Assembly: GCA_963666315.2 (NCBI GenBank)
Contig: CAXXHG010000043.1
Coordinates: 384,001-448,000 of the forward strand
From: Candidatus Binatia bacterium
Lineage (GTDB): Bacteria; Desulfobacterota; Binatia; Bin18
Length of the DNA stretch: 64,000 nucleotides
Direction of reading: 5' to 3'
Shown here: positions 2,279 to 39,876 of the stretch, piece by piece
How the letters are laid out: every line of letters starts with the position of its first letter
Numbering within the stretch: the stretch's first letter is position 1
Made by a program: the position numbers and the translations under genes
Notes under the pieces: model-generated
What the model was told of the DNA's origin: nothing
Databases searched by the model: none
Seen by the model: only the letters and a program-made list of their open reading frames with translations

Positions 2279-2321
2279 CGTGCCCTCGTAGCTCAGGAGG
2301 ATAGAGCACCGGATTCCTAAT
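2279..2321 (+). repeat. att direct repeat: 43 bp identical to 13735-13777 (5' half of tRNA-Arg CCT through the anticodon loop)
   Basis: CGTGCCCTCGTAGCTCAGGAGGATAGAGCACCGGATTCCTAAT occurs at both positions. Confidence 0.93.
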
Positions 2322-2339
2322 ACTATAACTGCCCGTTAC

Positions 2340-2427
2340 ATGGAGTGATATCAAGTAGTAAAGTAGCATACAGAGCGTACTCACCGTTGCGTTTCTGCCT
2401 TCCTGCTATCTCCTGATATCACTCCAT
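2340..2427. repeat. 14-bp perfect inverted repeat just inside the left att site
   Basis: ATGGAGTGATATCA (2340-2353) and TGATATCACTCCAT (2414-2427). Confidence 0.85.
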
Positions 2428-2448
2428 ATCTCCCGTTATACCATCTGT

Positions 2449-2468
2449 TTGGGCACCCCCTTGGGCAC
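2449..2468 (+). promoter_or_regulatory. Putative integrase arm-type sites (left end)
   Basis: TTGGGCAC x2 at 12-bp period, matching TTGGACAC/TTGGTCAC at 13663-13682. Confidence 0.65.
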
Positions 2469-2880
2469 AACTGTCTGCGCCAATAACGTGTGATTGAGGC
2501 GTGGCGGTACCTATTGACCTAAGGGGGTCAGGAAGTCCGGTCACGTCAAAAGCGGCATTGGCCTGGATTTGCCCATGGGTATGCCCTAACTGGGAGACGG
2601 TGCCGTCAACACGGCAGACCTGCACGCCACCCTAGGCCAGCTACATTCCTACGCTCAGCTAATTGCAGATCGTTGCGTAGTCAGACTTCATTGCGACGCG
2701 GAAGACCAGCCTCAGCAGAGCTTCTAAAAATCCGACCTGGAATTGGTTTGTGAACCCGACGTAGACAGTGAATCACGCAAGTGCACGCAGGGGGCTTTCC
2801 TCATGAACTGGTTTGTATTGCGAATCGATGCAGGACCTTGGTAAGGAAAACTTATGCAACGTCTCGTGTTCGTGCTGTAG

Positions 2881-3300
2881 GTGCCCCTGTTGGTACTCGT
2901 CGTGGGGTTCGCCCAAACAGGGACCTGGGAGCAGTTAGGCTCGAGCTTCGTTGCGGAAGGCTCCGGGGATTACCTGGGGCATTCTGTCGCAATCTCCTCC
3001 GACGGAAATCGTGTGGTTCTGGGAGGACAATACAACGACGGTGCAGGACACAACGCTGGCCATGTTCGAGTGTTCCAGTATGGCGGAACGAATTGGAGCC
3101 AACTTGGCGAAGATCTTGACGGCGAAGCGACAGAAGACCAATTCGGGTACGCAGTTGATCTGTCGTCAACATGGGGTCTCGATACTGGTCTTGCTGCTGG
3201 CGTTGTTCTCATTGGGTGCCGCGGCCGCGTGGGCTCAGTCGGCAGGCTGGACCCAAGTAGGAGACACTTTTGTCGAAGAAGCATGGACGGGTACCCAGCG
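2881..3300 (+). pseudogene. Fragments of secreted FG-GAP/integrin-alpha beta-propeller repeat proteins
   Basis: WEQLG...DYLGHSVAISSDGNRVVLGG...NAGHVRVFQY...WSQLGEDLDGEATEDQFGYAVDLS, then a second signal-peptide-like start ending WTQVG in another frame. Confidence 0.7.
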
Positions 3301-3479
3301 GTCTCATCCATCGAGACTGTTCTGATATATCGCTTTGATGAGTTATGGCGAAACGATATGGCCGCCTGAAGTCGTCAATCGGCGCGGCCACATTGTCTGC
3401 GTGTTTGTTTGGACGGCGCTTGGCATCGATGATGTTCCTCATACGGCTCAAACGTGGAGCGGTCCTGATCTTCCATGGG

Positions 3480-3761
3480 GCGACGCTGATTTACAATGAT
3501 GATATTGTGGAAACTGATCAGGATGTGCCGGTAACGATCCCAGAGGCAGACTTGCTTGCCAATGGTACGGATGTGCACGGAGATAGCCTGAATATTACTG
3601 CAATCGACAAAGCAGTGAAGGGGAGAATCCGTATCAGCGGAAACGGGATCATAAACTTCATGACTGGTCGGCGTTTCTCCGGTGACGGATCCTTTCAATA
3701 CACGATTGATGCTGGCAACGGTGGAACCGATACGGCCACCGTGACGATGTCGAGTCCTTAA
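3480..3761 (+). pseudogene. Cadherin-like/bacterial Ig-like adhesin repeat fragment
   Basis: DDIVETDQDVPVTIPEADLLANGTDVHGDSLNI...FSGDGSFQYTIDAGNGGTDTATVT. Confidence 0.7.
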
Positions 3762-3779
3762 AAAGAAGGAGGAGGTATT

Positions 3780-5039
3780 ATGCGGCCAACGTCATGGGCG
3801 GGAAAAGTAGCCGGCCTTTTTAGCGCTATTTTCGCTGGGATGTGTCTGGCTGCAGCGTTTAGCTATGCGGGAGATAAAGCAGGTATTTCTCAGCCTTTAG
3901 CTGGCTTTTCCGGTCTGCAGCTCGGCTTGTACGAGGCCGGGCTAGAGGAGTTCGAGCGACACTTTCGCGCTCGGGATGGGCTTGGGCCACAATTTAATGA
4001 AAACCCGTGCCATTCTTGCCAAGATGAAGGAGGTATTTCTCAACCTTTAGCTGGCCTTTCCACTCAGCAGCTCGGCTTGTACGAGGCCGGGCTAGAGGAG
4101 TTTGAGCGACGCTTTCGCCGTCAGGATGGGCTTGGGCCGCAATTTAATGGCAACTCGTGCCATTTCTGCCATCGTCAGCCGTCCGTTGGCGGCTCAGGTC
4201 CTCGCTATCGGAGTAATTTCAACTTTGCGCATGGTAGCGATCTGCTCGAACTCGAAGGAGGACCGCTGCTCCAAGTGAAAGCCATCCGTGGGGAACCAAG
4301 AGAACTTATTCCAGCCGCAGCAACAAATTTCTCGCTGCGCAAAGTTCCTCCGCTCCACGGCCTGGGCTTGGCGGAGGCCATTCCAGACAGTCAAATAGAA
4401 GCCGTCGCCACCCAAAACGGTGGAAAAAGTGTCCTCACTGAAGACGGCCATATGCAGCGTTTTGGTTCACAAAATCAGGTCGTTAGCCTCAAACAGTTTG
4501 TCATGGGTGGATTTGCTCGGGAACTTGGCATTACGGAAGACGAAAATCCTGAGATCTCTCAATCTATAGAGAACGTTCTCAACTTTATCCGCTTTCTGGC
4601 TCCACCTCTACGCGGAGAAATAAACGAAGACGTTCTGCGTGGCGAAGAAGTCTTCACACAGATTGGATGCGCTGACTGCCACACGCCTTCATTTACGACT
4701 GCGCCAGGCCCGTTCACCACGGCTAGCGGTGAGGTCGTCGATGTCACGGCTATGCAAAATAAGACGATCATGCCGTATTCAGACTTCCTCCTCCACGACT
4801 TGGGTCTAGGGCTCGACGACGGCGTCCCGTTGCACGGGGGATCTAGCGCAGAATATCGAACCATACCGTTGTGGGGACTCCGCTTCCGCAAAAACAAGCT
4901 GATGCATGATGCCCGAGCAGCCAATTTCCGTCAGATGCTGCTCTTTCATGGAGGTGAGGCAGCGGTAGCGAGAGATGAAGCGATGAGTCTTCCGCGTGAA
5001 GACAGCCAGGCTTTAGAGAAATTTTTAAAGTCGCTCTGA
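3780..5039 (+). CDS. Secreted di-haem oxidoreductase (DHOR / thiol oxidoreductase-like) with an internal 50-aa duplication
   Basis: Signal peptide, DGLGPQFN..SCHFCH, PPLHGLGLAEAIPD, GCADCH, PYSDFLLHDLG, RTIPLWGL, MHDARA; strong GGAGG RBS. Confidence 0.88.
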   Translation: MRPTSWAGKVAGLFSAIFAGMCLAAAFSYAGDKAGISQPLAGFSGLQLGLYEAGLEEFERHFRARDGLGPQFNENPCHSCQDEGGISQPLAGLSTQQLGLYEAGLEEFERRFRRQDGLGPQFNGNSCHFCHRQPSVGGSGPRYRSNFNFAHGSDLLELEGGPLLQVKAIRGEPRELIPAAATNFSLRKVPPLHGLGLAEAIPDSQIEAVATQNGGKSVLTEDGHMQRFGSQNQVVSLKQFVMGGFARELGITEDENPEISQSIENVLNFIRFLAPPLRGEINEDVLRGEEVFTQIGCADCHTPSFTTAPGPFTTASGEVVDVTAMQNKTIMPYSDFLLHDLGLGLDDGVPLHGGSSAEYRTIPLWGLRFRKNKLMHDARAANFRQMLLFHGGEAAVARDEAMSLPREDSQALEKFLKSL

Positions 5040-5245
5040 ATACTAGCTAGCCCATCGGCAACCTGTATGAGGGTCATATCGACGAACCTTAGACCAAAAT
5101 TCGATATGGTCATTTGACCCTCCCTGGATATTTGCTCATCACGAAGACGTTTTTTCTTAATGATCGGGTGCACATGAGGACTACGAAAGGTTTTTCCTCT
5201 TGCCGATGTGTACCCATTGTCATTCAACCATTCTGCTATCTGTTT
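5036..5245 (-). pseudogene. Serine-recombinase recombinase-domain-like fragment
   Basis: IAEWLNDNGYTSARGKTF..V..I pattern; no start codon context. Confidence 0.45.
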
Positions 5246-5399
5246 AAATGTCCAACCCTTGCCTCGAAAGTCTGATACCGGATCGTAAAGAAATTGTTGG
5301 TAATTGGAGTAGAGCGCGACCCATAGAGTTGATGTGCGCAGATTTACGTCGAAGGTTAAAATTGAGCCGAGTCATAATAGTCGATTCACCGCTGTCCTG

Positions 5400-5480
5400 G
5401 ATCGCTTTCTTCCGCACTGGCAGCAGCGGCGGGACGAGCTGAATCGTTTGCCAGTCCGGCATGAGGAGTGGGGATATTAA
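5400..5480 (+). pseudogene. C-terminal remnant of a YgjP/DUF45-like metallopeptidase (commonly next to type I RM loci)
   Basis: DRFLPHWQQRRDELNRLPVRHEEWGY* read directly from sequence. Confidence 0.5.
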
Positions 5481-5677
5481 GTGCGAGCGGCTGGCCATGG
5501 CGTGACGGATAGCGGGAGCGAGTGGCGTTATTGAAACGCGGGGACGGTTCTGACGAAAAGACAGGGTCTCATAACGTCGTGATAGGCCCACACCATAATT
5601 ATTCGAGCTGGGGCGGTTTTGTTGCCGGCGATGAGAACGATGATTCAGAACCTGCAGGAAATTCTTGAGTAGAAGTC

Positions 5678-6403
5678 TTAGTCCCGCCCTGCCTCAATAA
5701 TCTTCTCAGCTAATCCAATCGGATTGGTAAAAATCGCCTCATGGCTGCCCGGCATTTGGACCAGCCGATACAGACCCAAGCGATTTGACATACGTGGATG
5801 CCAGCCCCACTCGCCCGGTGGCAAAGCGATATCTTCGGTACAGTTCAGAAAACTCTTGGGGATGTCTGATGCGTAGAACTTCTTCATGTCGAGCTTGTCG
5901 CGATAGGGCTGGTACGGCTCAGGCGAGAGACGTTCGTAGGCGGATTTGGCGAGTGCTAAATCCGCATCATTAATAAAAGCGTCGCGCCAAATCGGGAACG
6001 GCAATACGATCGTATAATCGTTCGACTCTTTTACTAGCTCATCAAAAAGCTCGTGATAGTGAGATGGAACTTCATCCATCAGACTATTGCCATCCTCACA
6101 CACAAACGCATTCCAAAAGACGAGACGCTTGATCCGTTCCGGGATGGCAGGCGCTACCTGAGAGATAAGGGTGCCACCAAAGCTGTGGCCGACAAGGACA
6201 ATATCTCTCAAGTCTTCTTTAACAATGAAATCAATAATCGACTGCGTACACTGGGCGTGATTGACATTTTTGTCCACGCCTTTGCCATGCCCGGCGATGG
6301 TCGGACCAAAAGCGGTATGGCCTTTCCCTTCCAAATGCGCGATCACCGGCTCCCAGGCCGACCCATCGTGCCATGCACCGTGGACCAAGACAAATAGAGA
6401 CAT
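5678..6403 (-). CDS. Alpha/beta hydrolase (esterase, salicylate-esterase-like)
   Basis: FVLVHGAWH, GHSFGG nucleophile motif, PGSHEA catalytic His; AGGAGG RBS. Confidence 0.92.
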   Translation of the reverse strand: MSLFVLVHGAWHDGSAWEPVIAHLEGKGHTAFGPTIAGHGKGVDKNVNHAQCTQSIIDFIVKEDLRDIVLVGHSFGGTLISQVAPAIPERIKRLVFWNAFVCEDGNSLMDEVPSHYHELFDELVKESNDYTIVLPFPIWRDAFINDADLALAKSAYERLSPEPYQPYRDKLDMKKFYASDIPKSFLNCTEDIALPPGEWGWHPRMSNRLGLYRLVQMPGSHEAIFTNPIGLAEKIIEAGRD

Positions 6404-6586
6404 AGCTATCCTCCTGGGTGCTTTCGTATGACATGCCGATGGGAACTGTCAATGCATCGCCCCCGGCTTCTCCCACCCCAATCAGGATGAGAACAGTGTA
6501 CTGCAGTTCGGTACGTCAGTATCCGGAGGATCACTCAATGTTGCCTCCGGCATAACTTCTTCGGTTAGCGGCGGCAGTGGGAGAAA

Positions 6587-6836
6587 ATGCAGGAAGAAGC
6601 CTCGGCTGTTGACTTCAGCCCTGGTTCCCTCGACCTGTTGGCTGGCTCGGTCGGCAACGACGATGACCGGGCGATACTCGACGAAGAACAATTGCAGGCT
6701 GAAGAGGACGCGCAGTTCGAGGCTGCTTCTGCTGCCACGATGGGACCGATTGAGGATTTGTCGGCCAAGCAATTGTTTGAGCGCGAGCAGCAACTGCTCC
6801 AGGAAATGACAGATATTGCGGAGCCGCCCGCGAGGC
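6587..6836 (+). pseudogene. Internal fragment resembling the acidic linker of SNF2 helicases (DISARM DrmD-like)
   Basis: DDDRAILDEEQLQAEEDAQFEAASAA...REQQLLQEMTDIAE; recalled similarity only, no helicase motifs present. Confidence 0.35.
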
Positions 6837-7571
6837 CTAATCCAGTCCCTGCAGATTCTCAAGAATATCCGCCGGCTCTAGGCGAATGGCATAATTCGCG
6901 TCCACATGAGCAAGCTTGATAGTCCGATCTGTACCAATGACGTAGGTCCCGGGTATCGGGAGCTGCCAGACGGCGCCGCCATTATGATCGGGTAGCTTAA
7001 TTCCTAATGCCGCGTACGCTGTTTGAAGCTCATCAACGAGCCGAAATGCGAGTCCGAATTGCTTGGCCACAGTGTTGCCCACGTCGCTGAGGACCTCAAA
7101 CTTGAGGCCAGTCCTCTCTGCAATGGTGAGCGAGTTATCTGGTGTTTGCGGAGAAATGGCAACCAACGAGGCACCCTTAGCTAGTATCTCCGGCAGATGT
7201 TTTTGGTAAGCCTGCAACTGCGGGTTACAGTACGGTCACCACGCGCCTCTATAAAAGGCGACCACGACGAGCCCTGTGACCAAGAGGTCGGAAAGCGAAA
7301 CGGACTCTTCGCGGACATTGGGTAAGCTGAAATCGGGCGTCGTGTCTCCCACCTTCAAGGCTGTTTTTGCGATGCCGGACTTTACCTGGTCTTCTGTTGT
7401 TCGCACTACAACACCAAGAACTTCTTTGGGTAACTTGGGCAGCATTTCTTTCTGAAATGCTGCAATTTGTTGTTTGAGCTCGCTATCGGGCCCAGTCCGC
7501 GGGACCTTTTTGGTGCAGAACTCAATCATATCCGTAACAATCCCCGCGCCGGGTTCCATTTGACCGCTCAT
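6837..7571 (-). CDS. Peroxiredoxin-like AhpC/TSA-family selenoprotein (in-frame UGA at 7236-7238, W-U-P-Y-C)
   Basis: ORFs 7236-7571 and 6837-7217 share a frame; read-through gives VVAFYRGAW-U-PYCNPQLQAYQ, where homologues have WCPYC; selA and tRNA-Sec are in this window. Confidence 0.85.
7206..7228 (-). promoter_or_regulatory. Candidate bacterial SECIS hairpin
   Basis: mRNA GUAACCCGC-AGUU-GCAGGCUUAC; apical loop begins 16 nt after UGA with G at loop position 2. Confidence 0.55.
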
Positions 7572-7795
7572 AGAAATACACCTTTCCGAAAAGAATGACT
7601 GCAGCTCCGCGAGCTTTGCCGTTTGCGTAGGCGGGTCAGGTTGCTTGCTCCCCGGGCTCTTTTTTACCGATGGGGCTGTCGGTTTCGGAGGAGTTGTGCG
7701 CGATACGGAAGGGACAAAGGCGGACGATGGGCGCGGTTCAGGAACATCACCACTCTCTCCTGGTAGGTTAGTTGGCTGAGGCGGCGTTTCATCTG

Positions 7796-8596
7796 TTACA
7801 TCAGAGGACTTTCCTTTGATTCGGCTACGGTTGACCGCTTGGAAGGAGGCGGTGGGTCAGGCAGGAGTGGGACTGGCTCCTTTGTCTCCCGCTTCGCTGT
7901 CTCTTTATGCTGGACGGGGAGTTGTCCTTCTCCTTCCTTCGGATTGTCTAATTCAGAAGAAGCGTCTGAGGGCGGATCGGGTGGTATAGCGGACAAATCC
8001 TTCGGAATGCCAACAAAGGAAGAATCCTGCTTTGTAAGTCGTTGCCTCTGCACTCCTCCCTCATGAACTGGTGTCCATCCAACGTAGCCTACTACGGCAA
8101 GGGCGAGGAGTCCGGCAGCGCACATGCGTGCATAACGCCAACGGCTCTGAGGTGCTTCAAAGAGCTGTGTCGGAAGTACGATTTTATTGCTCTGGGGCTT
8201 TTTGGTTACATCCGCTTCGAGAAATTGCTCCGATGGAAGGGATGCTGCTGTTAACTTTGTCTCTTCGTCCTGTACGGTTTCTGGGGTAGGGGGTTCTTGC
8301 GAAGGCTCTCGCGATGCTTCCTGATCTTGCTGCGCTCTTTCAATAGGGTCTGTCGTCCCGACAGTGTCGAGTCCTCCCTCGGTGCTGAAGTCGTCATCAA
8401 GCTCTTCGAGCACATTCTTTGCCCTTCCCATTTCTACAGAGAGATCAAAGAGCTTCTGACGGATTTCGACGTGGTGAGAATCAAGAGCGAGTACTGCCCG
8501 GTACTCAGCCTCAGCCTCTTCCAGTCTACCCTCCTGCCTGAGACGCTCACCGTTCTGAATGTGATTAATTAGGGGATCACTCTCCTGGTTTGTCAT
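7796..8596 (-). CDS. TPR + single transmembrane + Pro-rich protein (probably continues by frameshift into the selenoprotein frame)
   Basis: N-terminal TPR (GRLEEAEAEYRAVLALDSHH), TM helix AAGLLALAVVGYVGW, Pro/Glu-rich tail. Confidence 0.65.
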   Translation of the reverse strand: MTNQESDPLINHIQNGERLRQEGRLEEAEAEYRAVLALDSHHVEIRQKLFDLSVEMGRAKNVLEELDDDFSTEGGLDTVGTTDPIERAQQDQEASREPSQEPPTPETVQDEETKLTAASLPSEQFLEADVTKKPQSNKIVLPTQLFEAPQSRWRYARMCAAGLLALAVVGYVGWTPVHEGGVQRQRLTKQDSSFVGIPKDLSAIPPDPPSDASSELDNPKEGEGQLPVQHKETAKRETKEPVPLLPDPPPPSKRSTVAESKESPLM

Positions 8597-8864
8597 GGTG
8601 TTTTTGCTGAGTATTCCACGAAGTTATCTAAGGAAATGGCTCTTCATTCGCCCCGCGACATAATCCCGTCTCCCCGTATTCCATTTCCTATTTTTGCGTG
8701 TATCGGTATCGCAGAAACTGGGGCCGTGCAAGAGAAACGCCCTGCCAGACTTCCATAATCGATTGTAGGTAAGCCCCAGGCTAGATATCGACCCGGTTCC
8801 GGGTCCATTTCATCTGACCCCAGCACTGTTTTGCACCCTTCACATCACCGACCTGTCGAACAAA

Positions 8865-9270
8865 GTGGCTTTGATGAACGGGACCGAAGTCGATGTGGTG
8901 CCCCTACCCTCCCTATACCGGCGGCTTGGTCCGGACGATGTGCGCCCTTTGTATCCGTTTGCACGTGATTTTGTTCTTCAGCTCCGTCTTGAAAAGGAGC
9001 TGCACGAGGACTGTCGCGTAGAGACCACGTTCCGATGGATACCGTTGACAGGCGGCAGCTTTAATGTCAGTCCGATGACCGCAAGAGCGCGTTACTCGAT
9101 CCTGCGCATACGCGGAACGCTGTTCGATGTTTTTACGATTCTTCTGCTGTTGACTGGAAGCTAGGATTAATCGACAAGGTCTTGTTCTGCCCTAATCGCG
9201 ACACACTATTTGTGAGACGAGGCAAGCAGAAGTACTGTACCCCTCGCTGCACACAGCACGCGGCAGGCCC
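8865..9270 (+). pseudogene. Degraded mobile-element gene ending in a CGNR-like zinc-finger remnant
   Basis: LFCPN...LFVRRGKQKYCTPRC in a broken frame after ORF 8865-9164. Confidence 0.4.
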
Positions 9271-9525
9271 ACGCGATTTCCAGGCCGCAGCCTGGGGGGG
9301 AATGGAGAGGACAACCCGATGTCCCGTAACCCCCAGAGAATCAAGGCTTTTCGCCTATTTTCGGCGGGTTACGAAACTCATAGTGTGGGTATTGGTAAAC
9401 AGCAATTGTTCACCGTCGAACGCGCAGAAGTCAGTGAGCGTTCCACCGTTGTCGATGTTAATGAGTCTTCCCACGGATTGTCTTCCTATTGAGAGACGAA
9501 ATGTACGCCTTGGCTACAAGGCGCG

Positions 9526-10335
9526 TTATGCGCTTTCAATGTCGTCGTAATCTCCATGGCGCCCTTTGCCACTGCTGAACCGCGCGGCGCCAGCGAGGCC
9601 TTCGGTCTCGACGATGTCGATGCTATTTCCCCATTCGGTACGCAGTGCATCGGCGACCGGCAAGCCATGCTGCCGATAGACCGAGCGACGGTCTGCTCGC
9701 ACGCATTCCTGCGGAAAGCGTGCAATCTCGTGGGCGAGTGCCTCGGCCGACTCTCGCGAGCTACCGTCAGCGACCACCTGTTCGCAGGCGCCGATGCGCA
9801 GACACTCGTCAGATGGGACTTTCCGTCCGGTCATGATGATTTCGAGCGCACGTCCCTGGCCGACCAGTCGGGGCAGGCGCACGGTACCGCCGTCGAGCAG
9901 GGGAACCCCCCAGCGTCGACAGTAGACACCAAAATAGGCGCTCTGTTCCATCACGCGGATATCGCACCACAACGCCAGCTCGAAGCCGCCCGCGACGGCC
10001 GGGCCCGCCACCGCAGCAATCACCGGTTTCGACAAGTCAAGCCGTGTCGGTCCTATGGCACCGCGTGGCGGCTTACTTCCATCCGCCGGAAAGTCGAGTT
10101 CACGGAGCGGTTTTGCGCTCCCTTTGAGCGCGCTCGCATACTTCAGATCCCATCCGGCGCAGAACGCACCGCCTTCCCCCCAGAGAACGGCCACGCTGGA
10201 ATCCGGATCAGCATCGAAACGCTCGAATGCCTCCACCAATGCATCCGCACTGTCAGGGTCCATTGCGTTGCGGGCTTCGAAGCGGCTGTGAATTACTGTC
10301 GTCACTGCACCATTTCTTTCAATGCGTACACTCAT
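9526..10335 (-). CDS. Enoyl-CoA hydratase/crotonase family protein
   Basis: FCAGWDLK, KPVIAAVAGPAVAGGFELALWCD, GVPLLDGGTVRLPRLVG; AAGGAG RBS before ATG at 10335. Confidence 0.93.
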   Translation of the reverse strand: MSVRIERNGAVTTVIHSRFEARNAMDPDSADALVEAFERFDADPDSSVAVLWGEGGAFCAGWDLKYASALKGSAKPLRELDFPADGSKPPRGAIGPTRLDLSKPVIAAVAGPAVAGGFELALWCDIRVMEQSAYFGVYCRRWGVPLLDGGTVRLPRLVGQGRALEIIMTGRKVPSDECLRIGACEQVVADGSSRESAEALAHEIARFPQECVRADRRSVYRQHGLPVADALRTEWGNSIDIVETEGLAGAARFSSGKGRHGDYDDIESA

Positions 10336-32893: not shown

Positions 32894-34000
32894 CGAATTT
32901 TCTCTTGACTTCCCTAAGACGTTGAAATGTGGTTCTGACTGTCCCTATTATACATGGGATTCTGTATTTCGTCAGAAGTTCTAGCCAATTGATCTATCTT
33001 CCTATTTCTTTTGGACCACGTATACGAAAGTGGCGCTGTCAGGAAAGCCAAGCCTTTTCTTCTTTCTCTGAATACATAAGGGTGAAGGAGAGTCTGCACC
33101 CCTTCGTGCTTTGATGCCGCTCATAATGAAGGGGGCAGAGGCAGTCTATGGAAAAAAAATAAAAACAAAAAGATGTTGGTTGTTCCGCGCACCCCCAAGA
33201 AGGCGTCTGCGAAGACTACTGTCACGCCTGTCCAAGCGGCCTCCTCCGCTTCTCAAGGGGTCGCTCCGACAGGAGAGATCGACGGTGTCATGACCATTCT
33301 CGAGGAAATGGACATTGAGACGGTCGACGTTCTTGAAGAAGAGAGCAGCGTCAACATTGAGGAAGAGGGCGCCGCTACCGTTGGGGCTTCAAAACGGGGA
33401 GAAGGAAACTGGGGAGAGGAAGTTGTCGCGACTGTGTAGATTATCAGGGGCGAGGGAAAGAATTTACATTTCAAACTGAGACACTACCGAATTTTCTCTT
33501 GACTTCCCTTTCTGACTGTCCCTATTATACATGGGATTCTGTATTTCGTCAGAAGTTCTAGCCAATTGATCTATCTTCCTATTTCTTTTGGACCACGTAT
33601 ACGAAAGTGGCGCTGTCAGGAAAGCCAAGCCTTTTCTTCTTTCTCTGAATACATAAGGGTGAAGGAGAGTCTGCACCCCTTCGTGCTTTGATGCCGCTCA
33701 TAATGAAGGGGGCAGAGGCCTATGGAAAAAAAAATAAAAACAAAAAGATGTTGGTTGTTCCGCGAGAAGGCGTCTGCGAAGACTACTGTCACGCCTGTCC
33801 AAGCGGCCTCCTCCGCTTCTCAAGGGGTCGCTCCGACAGGAGAGATCGACGGTGTCATGACCATTCTCGAGGAAATGGACATTGAGACGGTCGACGTTCT
33901 TGAAGAAGAAGAGCGTCAACATTGAGGAAGAGGGCGCCGCTACCGTTGGGGCTTCAAAACGGGGAGAAGGAAACTGGGGAGAGGAAGTTGTCGCGACTGT
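32894..34000 (+). repeat. Tandem imperfect duplication (~0.52 kb) of the rpoD promoter and 5' end
   Basis: 32894-33435 and 33488-34000 nearly identical with several small indels. Confidence 0.9.
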
Positions 34001-35517
34001 AGAACCGGTAATTGGAGTGACCCTGTCCGTATGTATCTCCAAGAGATGGGAAATATCCCTCTCCTGAGTCGCGAAGAAGAGGTGACGGTTGCCAAAGAGA
34101 TCGAGGCAGGAGAAAAGCACATTCGCCAAGAGATATTCTCAGCACCTTTAGCGCTCCAATATATCTTGTCGCTCGGCGAGCGCCTTAAGCGGGACGAAAA
34201 CGAAGCACGGTTTATTTTCGGTGATGAAGGGGAAGGTGATGAAGAGGAGGGTGCTGAGGCAACGAGAAAAGAAGATCCACGCATTGAGCTTTTCTTGAGC
34301 CGCATGGGTCCCCTGAAACGGCTTGCTGGAGAACGGGAGAAGGCCGAGAAACTCTCCCTCAAGCGCAGCCCGGTGAAAGAACGAGAGAAGGTGCTCAAGC
34401 GACTTATCGATCTACAGGGGAAAGTCAGAACATCGCTCGACGCTCTGCCTCTAGGCCGACGCCATATTACGATTGTTGTCGATAAATTGAAGGAAGTGGG
34501 CCTTCTCCTGGAAAAGCAGACCAGGACGATCAGACGCCAGGAGAGTCTGCACAATTGTCAGGCGTCCGAAATCCTCGCTCTTTCCCGTATCTACAAGAAT
34601 GGCGCCCCACGAGACGCGAAAGAAGGCAAGGAATCCAGTAAGGCGGCCCACGCACAAAAAATCCGAGAGGCAAGCCAAATCATCAAGAATACCCGAAAAG
34701 AGATCCAGCGCATTGAGGACCGACTTGGGACAAATATGGAAAAGATGCGTCGATCTCTCGCCGTCATTGCCCAAGGGGAGGCTCAAGCCCAGGAGGGGGA
34801 AACGCCGTGTTAATCGAGGCCAACCTGCGCCTTGTAGTGAGTATTGCCAAGCGCTATGTCAACCGTGGCCTTGGCTTCCTCGACTTGATCCAGGAGGGGA
34901 ATATCGGACTCATGCGCGCGGTTGAGAAGTTTGAGTATCAACGCGGATATAAGTTCTCAACGTATGCAACGTGGTGGATTCGCCAGTCTGTGAGTCGGGC
35001 GATCGCTGACCAAGCCCGGACGATCCGTATTCCGGTGCATATGATTGAGACGATCAATAAGGTGCTCCGGACCTCTCGCTATCTTGTCCAGCAGCTCGGC
35101 CGCGAACCCTCTCCAGAAGAAATTGCGGCGCAAATGGAAGTGCCGCCAGATAAGGTCCGAAAAGTCCTGAAGATAGTGAAAGAACCCGTCTCGCTGGAAA
35201 CACCCATTGGGGATGACGAAGAAAGTTCGCTCGGTGATTTTGTTGAAGACCGCCAAACGCTCTCTCCAGCCGACGCCGCCATGGCCCTCAGTTTAGAGGA
35301 GCAAACCCGCAAGGTGTTAGCCACGCTGACGCCGCGTGAGGAACAGATTCTGCGGATGCGGTTTGGGATTGATGAAAAGACGGACTACACGCTTGAAGAA
35401 GTTGGACAGCGGTTTGCGGTGACACGAGAACGTATTCGTCAGATTGAAGCAAAGGCGCTCCGGAAGCTGCGTAACCCAACACGAGCCAAGAGTTTAGAGG
35501 CTTTCATTGATGGCTAG
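33722..35517 (+). CDS. rpoD: RNA polymerase primary sigma factor (frameshifted as assembled)
   Basis: [63 protein letters not shown]; frame breaks near 33750-34020 and 34800. Confidence 0.9.
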
Positions 35518-35730: not shown

Positions 35731-36804
35731 TTAACGAAAAAGCAGCTTTTGAACTTCCGCGCAAAACGCAGTCGTTGATGCTGTGCCCCCCTGATCAGGG
35801 GGAAGGACGCCGCCGTCCGCGTATACCCGAGTAACCGTTTCCTCAAGGCGCTGTGCCTCTTCGGGCCAGCCCAGATATTCGAGCATCATGGCCGCTGAGA
35901 GCAGTGTTGCCGTCGGGTTGATAATGTTCTGTCCGGCAATGTCCGGAGCAGAGCCGTGCACGGACTCAAAATAGGCATAGGCGTCCCCGTAGCATCCGCT
36001 CGGCCCCAGCCCCAATCCTCCGATAGTTCCGGCGGCAACGTCTGAGAGAATGTCTCCGTACAGATTCGGCATCACCACGACGTCGAATTGAGAGGGACTG
36101 GCGACCAAACGTCGTGCAAAATCATCAACAATATACCGGTCATACTGCACATCTGGATACTCATTTGCCGCAGCCTCAACAACGTCTCGGAACAAACCAT
36201 CACTCTTACGCAGCATATTATATTTACTCGTACACGTGACTAAGCCCTTCCCGCCCTGGGCTTTGCGTTTGCGGGCAAGGGCAAACGCAAAATGCGCAAT
36301 ACGCTGTGTCCCCGCCTCGGTAATCACTTTAATGGCAAACTGGCCCTTAGATCGTGTATCCAAGGGTTTTCGAGTGATGGCACTCGTTAAAGACAGCGGC
36401 GCCAGCGTATCCAGGTCTCCCTCCAGCCCCATATACAGATCTTCAAGGTTTTCTCGGACAATGACAAAGTTGATTTTCTCAGGATCTTTGAGCGGACTAC
36501 GAAACCCAGGTCGCCAATGGGCCGGGCGGACATTTGCATAGGTCTGCTTGCCCCAGCGCAGATAGCCGATGCCACCCGTTGTCCCGTTCGTAGAGCCAAA
36601 CAGCGTTGAGTCAGATTGATCAATCGCTTTACGCAGCGCCATTTCGAATTCCCTGCGGGAACCGTATTGTTTGACCCCCTCTTCGCCGGAGGGGAACTCA
36701 GTAAAGCTGATATCCAACTCCAAACTTTTCAGAATGTTGACTGTTGGGGTCATCGCCTCTGGTGCGGCATCGTCACCCGGAATAATCACAACACGCTTTG
36801 GCAT
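35731..36804 (-). CDS. Isocitrate/isopropylmalate dehydrogenase family protein
   Basis: IPGDD, YANVRP, VRENLEDLY, NLYGDILSD, FESVHGSAPDIAGQNIINP. Confidence 0.92.
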   Translation of the reverse strand: MPKRVVIIPGDDAAPEAMTPTVNILKSLELDISFTEFPSGEEGVKQYGSRREFEMALRKAIDQSDSTLFGSTNGTTGGIGYLRWGKQTYANVRPAHWRPGFRSPLKDPEKINFVIVRENLEDLYMGLEGDLDTLAPLSLTSAITRKPLDTRSKGQFAIKVITEAGTQRIAHFAFALARKRKAQGGKGLVTCTSKYNMLRKSDGLFRDVVEAAANEYPDVQYDRYIVDDFARRLVASPSQFDVVVMPNLYGDILSDVAAGTIGGLGLGPSGCYGDAYAYFESVHGSAPDIAGQNIINPTATLLSAAMMLEYLGWPEEAQRLEETVTRVYADGGVLPPDQGGTASTTAFCAEVQKLLFR

Positions 36805-36892: not shown

Positions 36893-38074
36893 CTAACCCA
36901 GCCGTACGCTGTGATAGTTTTTGCCAGGAGTTATTTTCCCGAGTACAACCGGCGCGCGGGCACCTGTAGCGCTGGGAACGTTGGACGGCAGTCCATGCAA
37001 GGTCGCATAGGCCAAGACGGCGAACGCCACGGCTTCGAGAGATTGGCTATCATAGCCGGTCTCTTCGAGGAGGCGGACGCGGACCTCGGGCAGTGCTGCA
37101 GCGAATTGAGCCCGGAGAGCGGGATTCAAGGCCCCCCCGCCTGTTAAGAACACCTCGGCAAGCGGACCTCTCGGCAGGATAAAATTACGATACGCCTGCG
37201 CCATACTGATCGCGGTCAAGGCTGTGGCGGTAGCGACTTGGTCGGCTGGACTGAGTTTGAGACGTGTTGCGCGTTGACAAAAACGTCGCAGAAAAGGTTC
37301 GCCGAATTCTTCTCGGCCTGTGGATTTCGGGGGCCGTCGGGTAAAATAGGGATGACGTAACAGCTCGCCCAGGAGGCGTGTATGTATTGTTCCGGCTCGT
37401 GCCAGGCGGCCATTGCGGTCGTATAATTTTTTGCCGTCACTCACCGTGTGGACGACTCCGTCCATGAGTACATTACCCGGGCCGGTATCAAAAGCCACCA
37501 TATCTTTCGTGGCTGAGCGTGGGGGGAGGGCAGTGACATTTGCAATCCCGCCAATATTGTGGATGGCGACTGACCGGGTCGGATGTTGAAAAAGAAACGC
37601 ATGCACATAAGGAACCAGCGGTGCTCCCTCGCCACCCAGCGCGACATCTGCAGGCCGAAAGTCGGCCACTGTAGTAATGCCGGTTCGATTGGCAATAACC
37701 GCAGGCTCTCCGATTTGAAGAGTCGAACCTGGTCCGGGCCGCTGGTGTGGCCGATGATAGACCGTGTGGCCATGTGAGCCGATTGCGTCAATCTGCTCCG
37801 GCGTGACATCAGCCGCGCGACACAGTTTGAGAACGGCACGAGCAAAAAGTTCGCCTAGGAGCACGTTTACTTGTGAGACCTCGCCCGCGTTTGCGCTGGC
37901 TCCCTGGCTGAGGCGTAGGAGTCGGTCCCGGACGGCCCGCGAGTAGCGAAACGAGCGAAAAGCGTGTTGGTGGACGTGGAAGCGAGCCTTTGTACGCGCA
38001 ATATCAACAAGCACGGCATCGATGCCGTCGTGCGAAGTGCCGGACATGAGGCCGATGAGGGCGCGTTTCAGCAT
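36893..38074 (-). CDS. anmK: Anhydro-N-acetylmuramic acid kinase
   Basis: IGLMSGTSHDGID, IGSHGHT, DFRPAD.ALGGEGAPLVP, NIGGIAN, FDTGPGN. Confidence 0.96.
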   Translation of the reverse strand: MLKRALIGLMSGTSHDGIDAVLVDIARTKARFHVHQHAFRSFRYSRAVRDRLLRLSQGASANAGEVSQVNVLLGELFARAVLKLCRAADVTPEQIDAIGSHGHTVYHRPHQRPGPGSTLQIGEPAVIANRTGITTVADFRPADVALGGEGAPLVPYVHAFLFQHPTRSVAIHNIGGIANVTALPPRSATKDMVAFDTGPGNVLMDGVVHTVSDGKKLYDRNGRLARAGTIHTRLLGELLRHPYFTRRPPKSTGREEFGEPFLRRFCQRATRLKLSPADQVATATALTAISMAQAYRNFILPRGPLAEVFLTGGGALNPALRAQFAAALPEVRVRLLEETGYDSQSLEAVAFAVLAYATLHGLPSNVPSATGARAPVVLGKITPGKNYHSVRLG

Positions 38075-38195: not shown

Positions 38196-38534
38196 TCAGT
38201 CAGTCAGATTAAACTGAAAGACGGCATCGATGCCTTTTGAGGCTTCGGGCTTAAACGCATCCGCCATGCCGTCAATGACTTCTTGTATCGTTTCTGCCGG
38301 AGTACTGCCCTCATCAGCCGGCTTAAACAGATTTTGCATCTTCAGGGCTAGTCCCATATCTCCGGCAATTTTCAGCTTACCGCTCATAAAGGCCATCTGC
38401 CCGTTGAGCTTGCCGTTGACCATGTCAAGGTAATCACTTTCCTTCATGGTCATCGTGATTTTCGGGGTGTCGTGCGTACCTGTGTGCACGTCAATGCTTT
38501 CGTTCGCAATACGGAAGTGGTATTGGGTGGCCAT
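38196..38534 (-). CDS. SCP2 sterol/lipid-binding domain protein, circularly permuted
   Basis: [26 protein letters not shown] precedes the normally N-terminal [16 protein letters not shown] segment; GAGGAGG RBS. Confidence 0.85.
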
Positions 38535-38686
38535 CTTGGTCTCCTCCTCTAACTCCGGGATAAAGCTACGCTATCATAGATATTTGAGATGAGGAACTAG
38601 AGTAGAGTATTTTCTCATTGGAGTGGGCGTCAGACGTGTTGGACAATGCGATGCAGCAGCGCACAGAGAAAAGAGAGGGAGTAGGT

Positions 38687-39172
38687 ATGCAGCAGTCTAG
38701 GCGAAGAGACTGGTCGTTTGGGACTGGACTGGGGCTGTGTTTCCTCTGCTGGAGCCTGTTCAGTGGAGTGAACGCCCGAGCGCAGGAGACCCCGATTCAT
38801 GACAAACTTGCCCAAGTGGCTGAGGAGTCGACGCTTGAAATTACGACTCTCGGTCGTACGAGTGGGAAGCCGCGTACCAAACCGATTTGGTTTGTGTACG
38901 AGCAGGGATATTTATACATACAGTCGGGACAAGAAGGCAAAACCCACTGGTATCGTAATCTGCAAAAGAATGCCCAGTTGCGGCTCAAAATTGCCCATCT
39001 CGTCCTCACTGGGAAAGCAAAGTTTATTGAGGATAGGGTTGAAACGGAGAGAGTTCACATTCTGTTCAGCTCCAAATATACATTCGCCCGGTTTGCCGGG
39101 TTGGTCGGGTCGTCAATTGGCCAGGGGAAAGTGGTCGAGGTTGAGCTGTTGACCGAAGCCGAACAGGAGTAG
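38687..39172 (+). CDS. Deazaflavin(F420)-dependent nitroreductase-like split-barrel protein with signal peptide
   Basis: LEITTLGRTSGKPRTKPIWF, HWYRNLQKN. Confidence 0.75.
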   Translation: MQQSRRRDWSFGTGLGLCFLCWSLFSGVNARAQETPIHDKLAQVAEESTLEITTLGRTSGKPRTKPIWFVYEQGYLYIQSGQEGKTHWYRNLQKNAQLRLKIAHLVLTGKAKFIEDRVETERVHILFSSKYTFARFAGLVGSSIGQGKVVEVELLTEAEQE

Positions 39173-39183
39173 CGAGTTTTCTC

Positions 39184-39876
39184 ATGAAGGTGAACGCGAT
39201 CATTGTTGCGGCAGGAAAAGGCGAGCGCATGCAGAGTGAGCTGCCCAAGCCCTTCCTGTCTGTCGCCGGCAAACCGATTCTCGTGCATACCCTACGGCGT
39301 ATTGAGCAGGTGGCCGCAATCAGCCGTATCGTTGTTGTGGTTGCCCCTGAACGTGAAGCATTATGCCGTGAGCTGTTGCGCTCTCACGGGTCGTTTCGGA
39401 GGCCGATTGTCGTCGTGCATGGAGGCGCAGAACGGCAGGATTCGGTGCGCAAGGGCTTAGCTGGGCTTGAAACAGGCTGCGATATCGTCGTTATTCATGA
39501 CGCAGCTCGGCCGTTTATTGCGGTCAGGACCATTGAGCAGAGCATTACGGCGGCGGCTGAGTCGAGTGGTGCAATAGTTGCGATCCCGGCCCGGGATACC
39601 ATTAAACGCGTCAGCGCTCAGCATTTTATCTGTGAGACTGTTTCACGCTACGACCTCTGGCTGGCCCAAACCCCACAGACGTTTCGGGTTGCGGCCATTC
39701 GAGAAGCGCACGAAAGGGCTCTGCAATACGGCATATCGGCAACGGATGATGCCGCTCTTGTTGAGCAAATGGGGCAACGTGTTCGCATCGTTTTGGGTGA
39801 GGCTGGCAACTTTAAAATCACTACCCCGGACGATCTCGTTGTGGCTGAGGCACTCCTGCAAAGCAAGCCGGGCTAG
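39184..39876 (+). CDS. ispD: 2-C-methyl-D-erythritol 4-phosphate cytidylyltransferase
   Basis: AAGKGERM, GGAERQDSV, IHDAARP, AQTPQ, TDDA, NFKITTPDDL. Confidence 0.96.
   Translation: MKVNAIIVAAGKGERMQSELPKPFLSVAGKPILVHTLRRIEQVAAISRIVVVVAPEREALCRELLRSHGSFRRPIVVVHGGAERQDSVRKGLAGLETGCDIVVIHDAARPFIAVRTIEQSITAAAESSGAIVAIPARDTIKRVSAQHFICETVSRYDLWLAQTPQTFRVAAIREAHERALQYGISATDDAALVEQMGQRVRIVLGEAGNFKITTPDDLVVAEALLQSKPG

Follow-up and report, generated by a model that had tools for sequence, protein, structure and literature searches.

A conserved circularly permuted SCP2 domain in a Binatota-type bacterial lineage

Results

The SCP2 gene and its neighbours

The window, which here means the whole 64-kb stretch of DNA that was analysed, contains an intact open reading frame (ORF) for a small SCP2-domain protein, and its sequence matches those of its relatives. 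The sequence-only reading of this DNA had placed an ORF with a clean start and stop at exactly 38196..38534, and the ORF list and translation agree with it in coordinates, in the ATG and TGA codons and in the protein sequence that it quoted. The strong ribosome-binding site that it claimed is also present, with a GGAGG core 8 nt from the ATG. The features of the gene and the surrounding genes are as follows.

38196..38534, minus strand: permuted SCP2 coding sequence, ATG start, 112 codons and a TGA stop (ORF list, translation)
38541..38549, minus strand: Shine-Dalgarno sequence GAGGAGGAG, read from the sequence
38325..38534, minus strand: part A (residues 1-70), equivalent to the C-terminal two-thirds of a canonical SCP2 domain, with beta2, beta3, beta4, two helices, beta5 and the last helix
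38289..38324, minus strand: linker, residues 71-82, between the helices that are last and first in the canonical chain
38199..38288, minus strand: part B (residues 83-112), equivalent to the N-terminal third of a canonical domain but C-terminal here, with helix 1, a short helix 2 and beta1
36893..38074, minus strand: anmK, anhydro-N-acetylmuramic acid kinase (Pfam AnmK, E 2e-109), 121 nt downstream of the SCP2 gene
35731..36804, minus strand: isocitrate/isopropylmalate-type dehydrogenase (Pfam Iso_dh, E 1e-79), the next gene
38618..39172, plus strand: PNPOx/F420H2-reductase-like gene (Pfam PF04075, PF01243), the divergent, conserved upstream neighbour
39184..39876, plus strand: ispD (Pfam IspD, E 9e-73), beyond the PNPOx-like gene

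Each of the two parts occurs once in the 64-kb window, as had been stated earlier (tblastn; remaining matches E >= 0.2). The linker is variable in composition, with abundant Pro, Gly, Ser and Ala, and it is the least conserved region in the alignment of relatives. The dehydrogenase gene at 35731..36804 has no NCBIfam equivalog at the cut-off. The PNPOx-like ORF (38618-39172), as called, carries approximately 60 extra N-terminal residues that include a hydrophobic signal-like stretch, and the true start of this gene may be an internal ATG near 38687. A promoter and terminator scan found no terminator-like site in the gap between the SCP2 gene and anmK; the sole terminator-like site in that scan falls inside anmK and is uninformative. 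The SCP2 gene is possibly co-transcribed with anmK.

Relatives and conserved gene order

A word-indexed protein search returned 1326 relatives of the window protein, and the best 120, as clusters at 90% identity, were listed. All of these best 120 are collinear with the query (97-100% coverage, 63-96% identity). Most of them are 109-112 aa long, and P0002 is 96% identical to the window protein. Where public names are given, they are only "SCP2 sterol-binding domain-containing protein" or "putative sterol carrier protein". In a scan of one genome per species, 548 relatives were found, and the best 80 loci were examined by tblastn with parts A and B separately. Part A is followed by part B, which is the permuted order, at six of these best 80 loci (L001-L006). 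The canonical order, B followed by A with 15-18 nt between them, is found at 14 of the 80, and at 60 only part A was detected. Homologues with the same order, which the sequence-only reading had suggested looking for, therefore exist both among the best 120 relatives and at six of the best 80 genome loci.

Permuted and canonical relatives come from metagenome-assembled genomes (MAGs) labelled Binatia, Binatota or delta proteobacterium, and the MAG labels together with the nearest ESM Atlas clusters make the lineage of the permuted clade Binatota-like. The labels of L002 and L014 (Enterobacteriaceae and Klebsiella pneumoniae, respectively) are at odds with their gene content and closest relatives, and these record labels are probably wrong.

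The permuted loci have a common gene order, with ispD and the PNPOx-like gene on one strand, SCP2, anmK and the isocitrate-type dehydrogenase gene on the other strand, and then rpoD. Adjacency of SCP2 and anmK is kept in L001, L002, L004 and L006, and the dehydrogenase gene follows SCP2 in all of L001-L006. A homologue of the PNPOx-like gene stands at the same place in L001, L003, L004 and L006, and ispD is kept in L001, L004 and L006. The exceptions are L003, which is without anmK, L002, in which neither ispD nor the PNPOx-like gene was matched, and L005, which lies on a short contig. A functional link of the SCP2 gene with anmK in peptidoglycan recycling was considered and set aside, and the pairing is left as adjacency only, at six of the best 80 loci. 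In L017 (5875-7489) and L018 (5983-7609), the gene immediately upstream of anmK is an SCP2 gene of canonical order that encodes 111 aa. These genes belong to another SCP2 clade, and the pairing therefore recurs with both chain orders. The nearest canonical clade (L007, L008, L011, L012, L013 and L016; approximately 2300-9700 in each), to which P0129 belongs, has a conserved block of its own. This block consists of SelA, a 507-aa BON-domain protein and SCP2, with a convergent FtsX/MacB-type permease and a family III CoA-transferase, and it has a cell-envelope or lipid flavour.

Order of the SCP2 segments

The Pfam SCP2 profile (PF02036) matches only residues 3-71 of the window protein, and these correspond to positions 33-101 of the 101 profile positions. 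The score is 73 bits, which is above the gathering cut-off of 21.3 bits. Because the match begins at profile position 33, the start of the protein corresponds to the end of the profile's first third, whereas canonical sisters are matched in one piece over positions 11-100. The last 41 residues alone gave no Pfam match; they are too short for the general Pfam profile, and a profile of close canonical relatives is needed for them.

Such a profile was built from an alignment of 40 canonical relatives and has 109 positions. It matches the permutant twice, with residues 3-71 on positions 40-108 (110.7 bits) and residues 80-111 on positions 4-35 (26.7 bits). When the protein sequence was doubled, one full-length match appeared, from residues 80-183 to positions 4-108, with 147 bits. 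The tail alone scored 30.3 bits, and the maximum among 200 shuffled tails was 2.6 bits. The sequence-only reading had predicted that an SCP2 profile would give two partial matches in swapped order; this holds for the profile of the 40 canonical relatives, but PF02036 gives one match.

Pairwise alignments give the same pattern. In BLASTP against the canonical P0129 (109 aa), query residues 4-70 align with subject residues 42-108 (69% identity, E 5e-34), and query residues 80-111 align with subject residues 5-36 (47% identity, E 1e-9). The same swapped pair of alignments was obtained with P0135. Identity to these two canonical relatives is 66-69% in part A and 41-47% in part B (E 1e-7 to 1e-9 for part B). 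Among representatives at 50% identity, canonical proteins of approximately 105-113 aa typically match in two stretches, and a handful of proteins of 110-111 aa are collinear over their full length. In both the alignments and the profile matches, the permutant departs from the canonical N-to-C order of elements; its two swapped segments each match the reference, and the reference is covered once. The swapped order proposed from the sequence is borne out by these data.

The canonical relatives have a Gly-rich turn of five residues between beta1 and beta2 (subject 37-41 in P0129), and this turn is absent in the permutant. The break had been placed at the beta1-beta2 turn in the earlier reading, and the alignments agree that the cut falls there and that the new ends lie at this position. 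That reading had also described a new linker of 11 residues between the old C-terminus and the old N-terminus. The linker does join these ends, but it is not wholly new. The alignments with P0135 reach query residue 73 and restart at query residue 80, which leaves six query residues opposite the first four residues of the subject, and this indicates that the linker is made of the canonical C-terminal tail and the canonical N-terminal tail and has their length.

Predicted structure

AlphaFold2 (AF2) was run on the permutant with an alignment of 55 sequences, all of them permuted. The monomer model has a pLDDT of 91.7 and a pTM of 0.82, with no segment below 50, and the pLDDT of the linker block is approximately 80. 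The predicted elements are E3-10, E14-18, E26-31, H32-39, H45-50, E55-58 and H60-69 in part A and H83-93, H96-99 and E103-111 in part B. The order is therefore E E E H H E H, linker, H H E. The model of the canonical P0129 (pLDDT 92.6) has the order H H E, turn, E E E H H E H, and the permutant has the same ten elements rotated by three. The full SCP2 set is present in the permutant model, that is, the two helices that are N-terminal in canonical proteins, five strands and three further helices. The monomer prediction that the sequence-only reading called for thus gave a confident closed fold with the canonical elements in rotated order.

The best structural relatives by sequence and fold are eukaryotic SCP2 and the SCP2-like domain of MFE-2 (1c44, 2c0l and 1ikt), which are lipid-binding alpha/beta folds. 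Foldseek, which depends on chain order, placed the permutant on 1ikt in 56 columns, with an rmsd of 1.3 and a TMq of 0.46, and gave one match at E<=1e-3. With these SCP2 structures, only the collinear 56-67 columns superpose (rmsd 1.3-4.7, TMq 0.46-0.50). For the model of the canonical sister, 100-106 columns aligned, TMq was 0.75-0.82 and 49 matches reached E<=1e-3. Since Foldseek requires the same chain order, a result of this kind would be expected for a model of a circular permutant. The confidence of the model and the order of its elements suggest that helix 1 and beta1 occupy their canonical places and that the permutant is a closed monomer with normal SCP2 architecture.

Another possibility, raised in part by the sequence-only reading as domain swapping or polymerisation by strand complementation, is that the protein forms an obligate strand-swapped dimer or an open-ended polymer, in which the C-terminal beta1 of one chain pairs with the N-terminal beta2 of the next. 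The new ends are on strands that neighbour each other edge to edge (E3-10 and E103-111), and with a flexible 12-residue linker (pLDDT approximately 80) this geometry would in principle permit such an exchange. The monomer model is nevertheless confident and compact, its sheet is complete without a partner, and relatives tolerate large additions directly after beta1, which would crowd a polymer. We consider strand exchange unlikely and prefer the closed monomer.

Phylogeny and tandem SCP2 proteins

For the trees, permuted rows were reordered in silico to the canonical order. In a quick tree of 127 rows, all 27 permuted rows formed one clade (SH-aLRT 100), which lies inside a starred set (99) together with the canonical P0129, L007, L008, L011, L012, L013 and L016. 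A more careful tree, with 76 rows, gave the permuted clade UFBoot/SH-aLRT values of 100/99 and recovered it in 100% of 200 bootstrap trees, and the sister link between it and the P0129 clade had support of only 85/87. The careful tree was rooted on 12 more distant canonical rows, which did not all fall on one side of a branch, and with this approximate rooting the permuted clade falls within the canonical SCP2 proteins from Binatota-type MAGs. The trees show a single origin of the permutation in a Binatota-type lineage.

Three tandem SCP2-SCP2 proteins were found among the canonical relatives, namely P0128 (221 aa), P0271 (259 aa) and P0276 (242 aa). P0001 aligns with P0128 in one alignment that crosses the junction of the two domains (query 4-111, subject 42-147, E 5e-20). 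The part of P0128 that the permutant covers begins at beta2 in repeat 1 and ends at beta1 in repeat 2, and the linkers differ by two residues. Between P0129 and repeat 2 of P0128, identity is 63%. The tandem intermediates that the sequence-only reading had named as something to look for are thus present, and the permutant is collinear across the junction of one of them. The halves of the tandem proteins pair with each other in the careful tree, which indicates separate, recent in-gene duplications that occurred at least three times, and not ancestors of the permuted clade. The placement of P0128 in the tree is unsettled.

The most likely route to the permutant would be tandem duplication of an SCP2 gene of approximately 110 aa, after which copy 1 lost its first third and copy 2 its last two-thirds. 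The present chain starts at beta2 and runs to the last canonical helix, then crosses a flexible linker of 12 residues derived from the former C- and N-terminal tails, and ends with the former N-terminal helices and beta1. The new ends lie at the former Gly-rich beta1-beta2 turn. The tandem proteins resemble the intermediate that this route requires, although, unlike the permutant, they keep both domains complete.

The same product might have arisen by another route, for example fission at the beta1-beta2 turn and fusion in the reverse order. Sequence data reveal the end state only, and the sister canonical clade is at another locus, so that the ancestral locus is not fixed. On the other hand, the length and the residues of the linker fit a head-to-tail join of canonical tails, tandem SCP2-SCP2 proteins arose at least three times in close relatives, with the permutant collinear across one junction, and no split half-genes were seen in searches that were not restricted to shorter proteins. 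Fission and fusion is therefore very unlikely, and duplication and trimming is the route that we favour. Conversion of a canonical gene in place was also considered and is unsupported; the nearest canonical clade is in a different neighbourhood, and L017 and L018 belong to another clade.

Selection and sequence quality

Selection was estimated by the Nei-Gojobori method for the window gene and L001-L006, which give 21 pairs, 15 of them saturated at synonymous sites. Over the whole gene, dN/dS was 0.05-0.145 in the six of 21 pairs with finite dS. Where dS was finite, the values were 0.02-0.10 for part A, 0.05-0.22 for part B and 0.16-0.79 for the linker. These values indicate that parts A and B are under purifying selection and that the linker is relaxed.

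The sequence around rpoD in the window is untidy. A tandem direct duplication of approximately 570 bp (33000-33435 and 33577-34000; 98-100% identity, copy spacing 565-577 bp) covers the upstream region and the 5' end of rpoD. Its copies differ by small indels and the frame holds stops, and it could be either an assembly artefact or a very recent duplication. The rpoD frame changes at 34774-34813, beside a run of five G at 34795-34799, and regions 2-4 (34807-35517) do not share the frame of the 260 codons before them; in L001 the gene is one ORF of 608 aa. The frame change looks like a homopolymer indel error because the gene is essential, and base-level errors are therefore possible in the window.

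The near-identical duplication and the frame breaks in rpoD are the grounds for asking whether the permuted order is itself a product of mis-assembly, or whether the gene is the functionless middle of a broken tandem gene. This has a negligible probability, because the same order, start and stop are found in all of the best 120 clusters and at six independently assembled loci, and dN/dS is low, the ribosome-binding site is strong and the predicted fold is confident. A truncated SCP2 with an unrelated C-terminal helix-strand extension, which the single partial Pfam match and the absence of any Pfam match for the tail might suggest, can be dismissed with equal firmness from the identity of the tail to the canonical N-terminus, its score against 200 shuffles and the single full-length match of the doubled sequence.

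C-terminal extensions of relatives

The window gene ends directly after beta1, and the 121-nt gap before anmK is too short for a hydrophobic tail. Ten of the best 120 relatives are longer, with 167-182 aa, and six of these were read (P0030, P0032, P0035, P0046, P0062 and P0109). Past beta1, they have a low-complexity spacer of approximately 35 aa and then approximately 20 hydrophobic residues, as judged by eye. From their sequences, these six look like tail-anchored versions of the carrier.

In six of 19 longer relatives, those of 349-412 aa (P0272-P0275, P0277 and P0278), the C-terminus of the permuted domain leads into a fused module of approximately 290 aa. In three of the six, checked against Pfam, this module matches Ubiq_cyt_C_chap (PF03981) with 33.6-45.4 bits against a cut-off of 21.5. 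The module also has a sub-threshold NCBIfam match to MsyB and a Cys-rich, zinc-ribbon-like end. The C-terminal fusions indicate an exposed new C-terminus that can be used, and their sequences hint at a membrane, quinone or respiratory-complex context. The fusion protein P0274 and the stand-alone P0014 have longest listed contigs of equal length and may be paralogues in one genome.

Discussion

Our data indicate that the protein encoded at 38196..38534 is a real, conserved circular permutant of the SCP2 fold. The sequence-only reading had inferred a functional permutant of the type produced by duplication and trimming, and this is supported by the swapped matches, the homologues in the same order, dN/dS, the predicted fold, the single clade and the tandem forms. 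Taken as a whole, it is highly probable that the gene encodes a single-domain, circularly permuted SCP2 that arose once by duplication and trimming and acts as a closed monomer carrying a hydrophobic ligand, the ligand being proposed by analogy.

Stand-alone SCP2 proteins of 109-112 aa (P0129, P0135, P0138 and L007-L019) have the same size and the same ten elements as the permutant. They differ from it in that its order is rotated, its ends replace the Gly-rich turn and a 12-residue linker joins the old ends. The permutant also lies in a different gene neighbourhood from that of the nearest canonical clade.

Compared with eukaryotic SCP2, the window protein is without a peroxisomal targeting end, and ligand binding would be shared by analogy. 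The mammalian SCP2 is the best relative of solved structure by sequence (E 1e-11 over query 24-70). Because of its fold, this match to mammalian SCP2 and an identity of 69% between part A and stand-alone SCP2, the permutant is probably a small carrier of a hydrophobic ligand, such as a lipid, an isoprenoid or a quinone-like molecule. The closed monomer would shelter its ligand in a cavity between the sheet and the helices.

The SCP2 fold serves in peroxisomal lipid transfer, in insect sterol uptake and in the quinone carriers UbiJ and UbiT. It is also used as a scaffold for engineered enzymes, according to PDB titles among the Foldseek matches. UbiJ and UbiT, which carry quinone intermediates, are bacterial SCP2 folds, and UbiJ structures are low in the Foldseek list of the permutant. 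The sole NCBIfam match of the window protein is to the UbiT SCP2 domain, with 23.6 bits against a cut-off of 46.9. With a score this far under the cut-off and no ubi genes beside the window gene, membership in UbiT or UbiJ was rejected. The C-terminal domain of alkyl sulfatase (PF14864) was likewise rejected, with 23.6 bits against a cut-off of 27 and a stand-alone protein of 112 aa.

Natural circular permutation is known from textbook examples such as saposin and swaposin, DNA methyltransferases and lectins. For SCP2 the phenomenon and the proposed route are the same but the fold differs, and related genomes contain the permuted clade together with its canonical relatives and the tandem forms. 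The literature searched, a body that excludes most subscription journals, gave no account of an SCP2 with permuted order, and within that scope the form appears to be undescribed.

The natural permutant means that the SCP2 fold tolerates opening at the beta1-beta2 turn together with joining of its original ends. The series in related genomes is unusually complete, from canonical proteins through recurrent tandems to one permuted clade and C-terminal fusions, and it makes the duplication-and-trimming model experimentally testable. Annotation with the general profile catches two-thirds of the domain, so that permutants look truncated in databases.

The permutation might also have been adaptive rather than neutral. 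With the chain ends now at the beta1-beta2 tip and no longer on the helical face, the C-terminus would be free for modules, and the clade would be a family of free and membrane-tethered carriers of a lipid or quinone-like ligand. Relatives use this end for a hydrophobic segment like a tail anchor and for a Ubiq_cyt_C_chap (Cbp3/YaaW-like) module. We put this reading forward tentatively and regard it as unlikely. If it is true, the C-terminus of the permuted SCP2 would carry modules without disturbing the ligand cavity, and these carriers would act at the cytoplasmic membrane.
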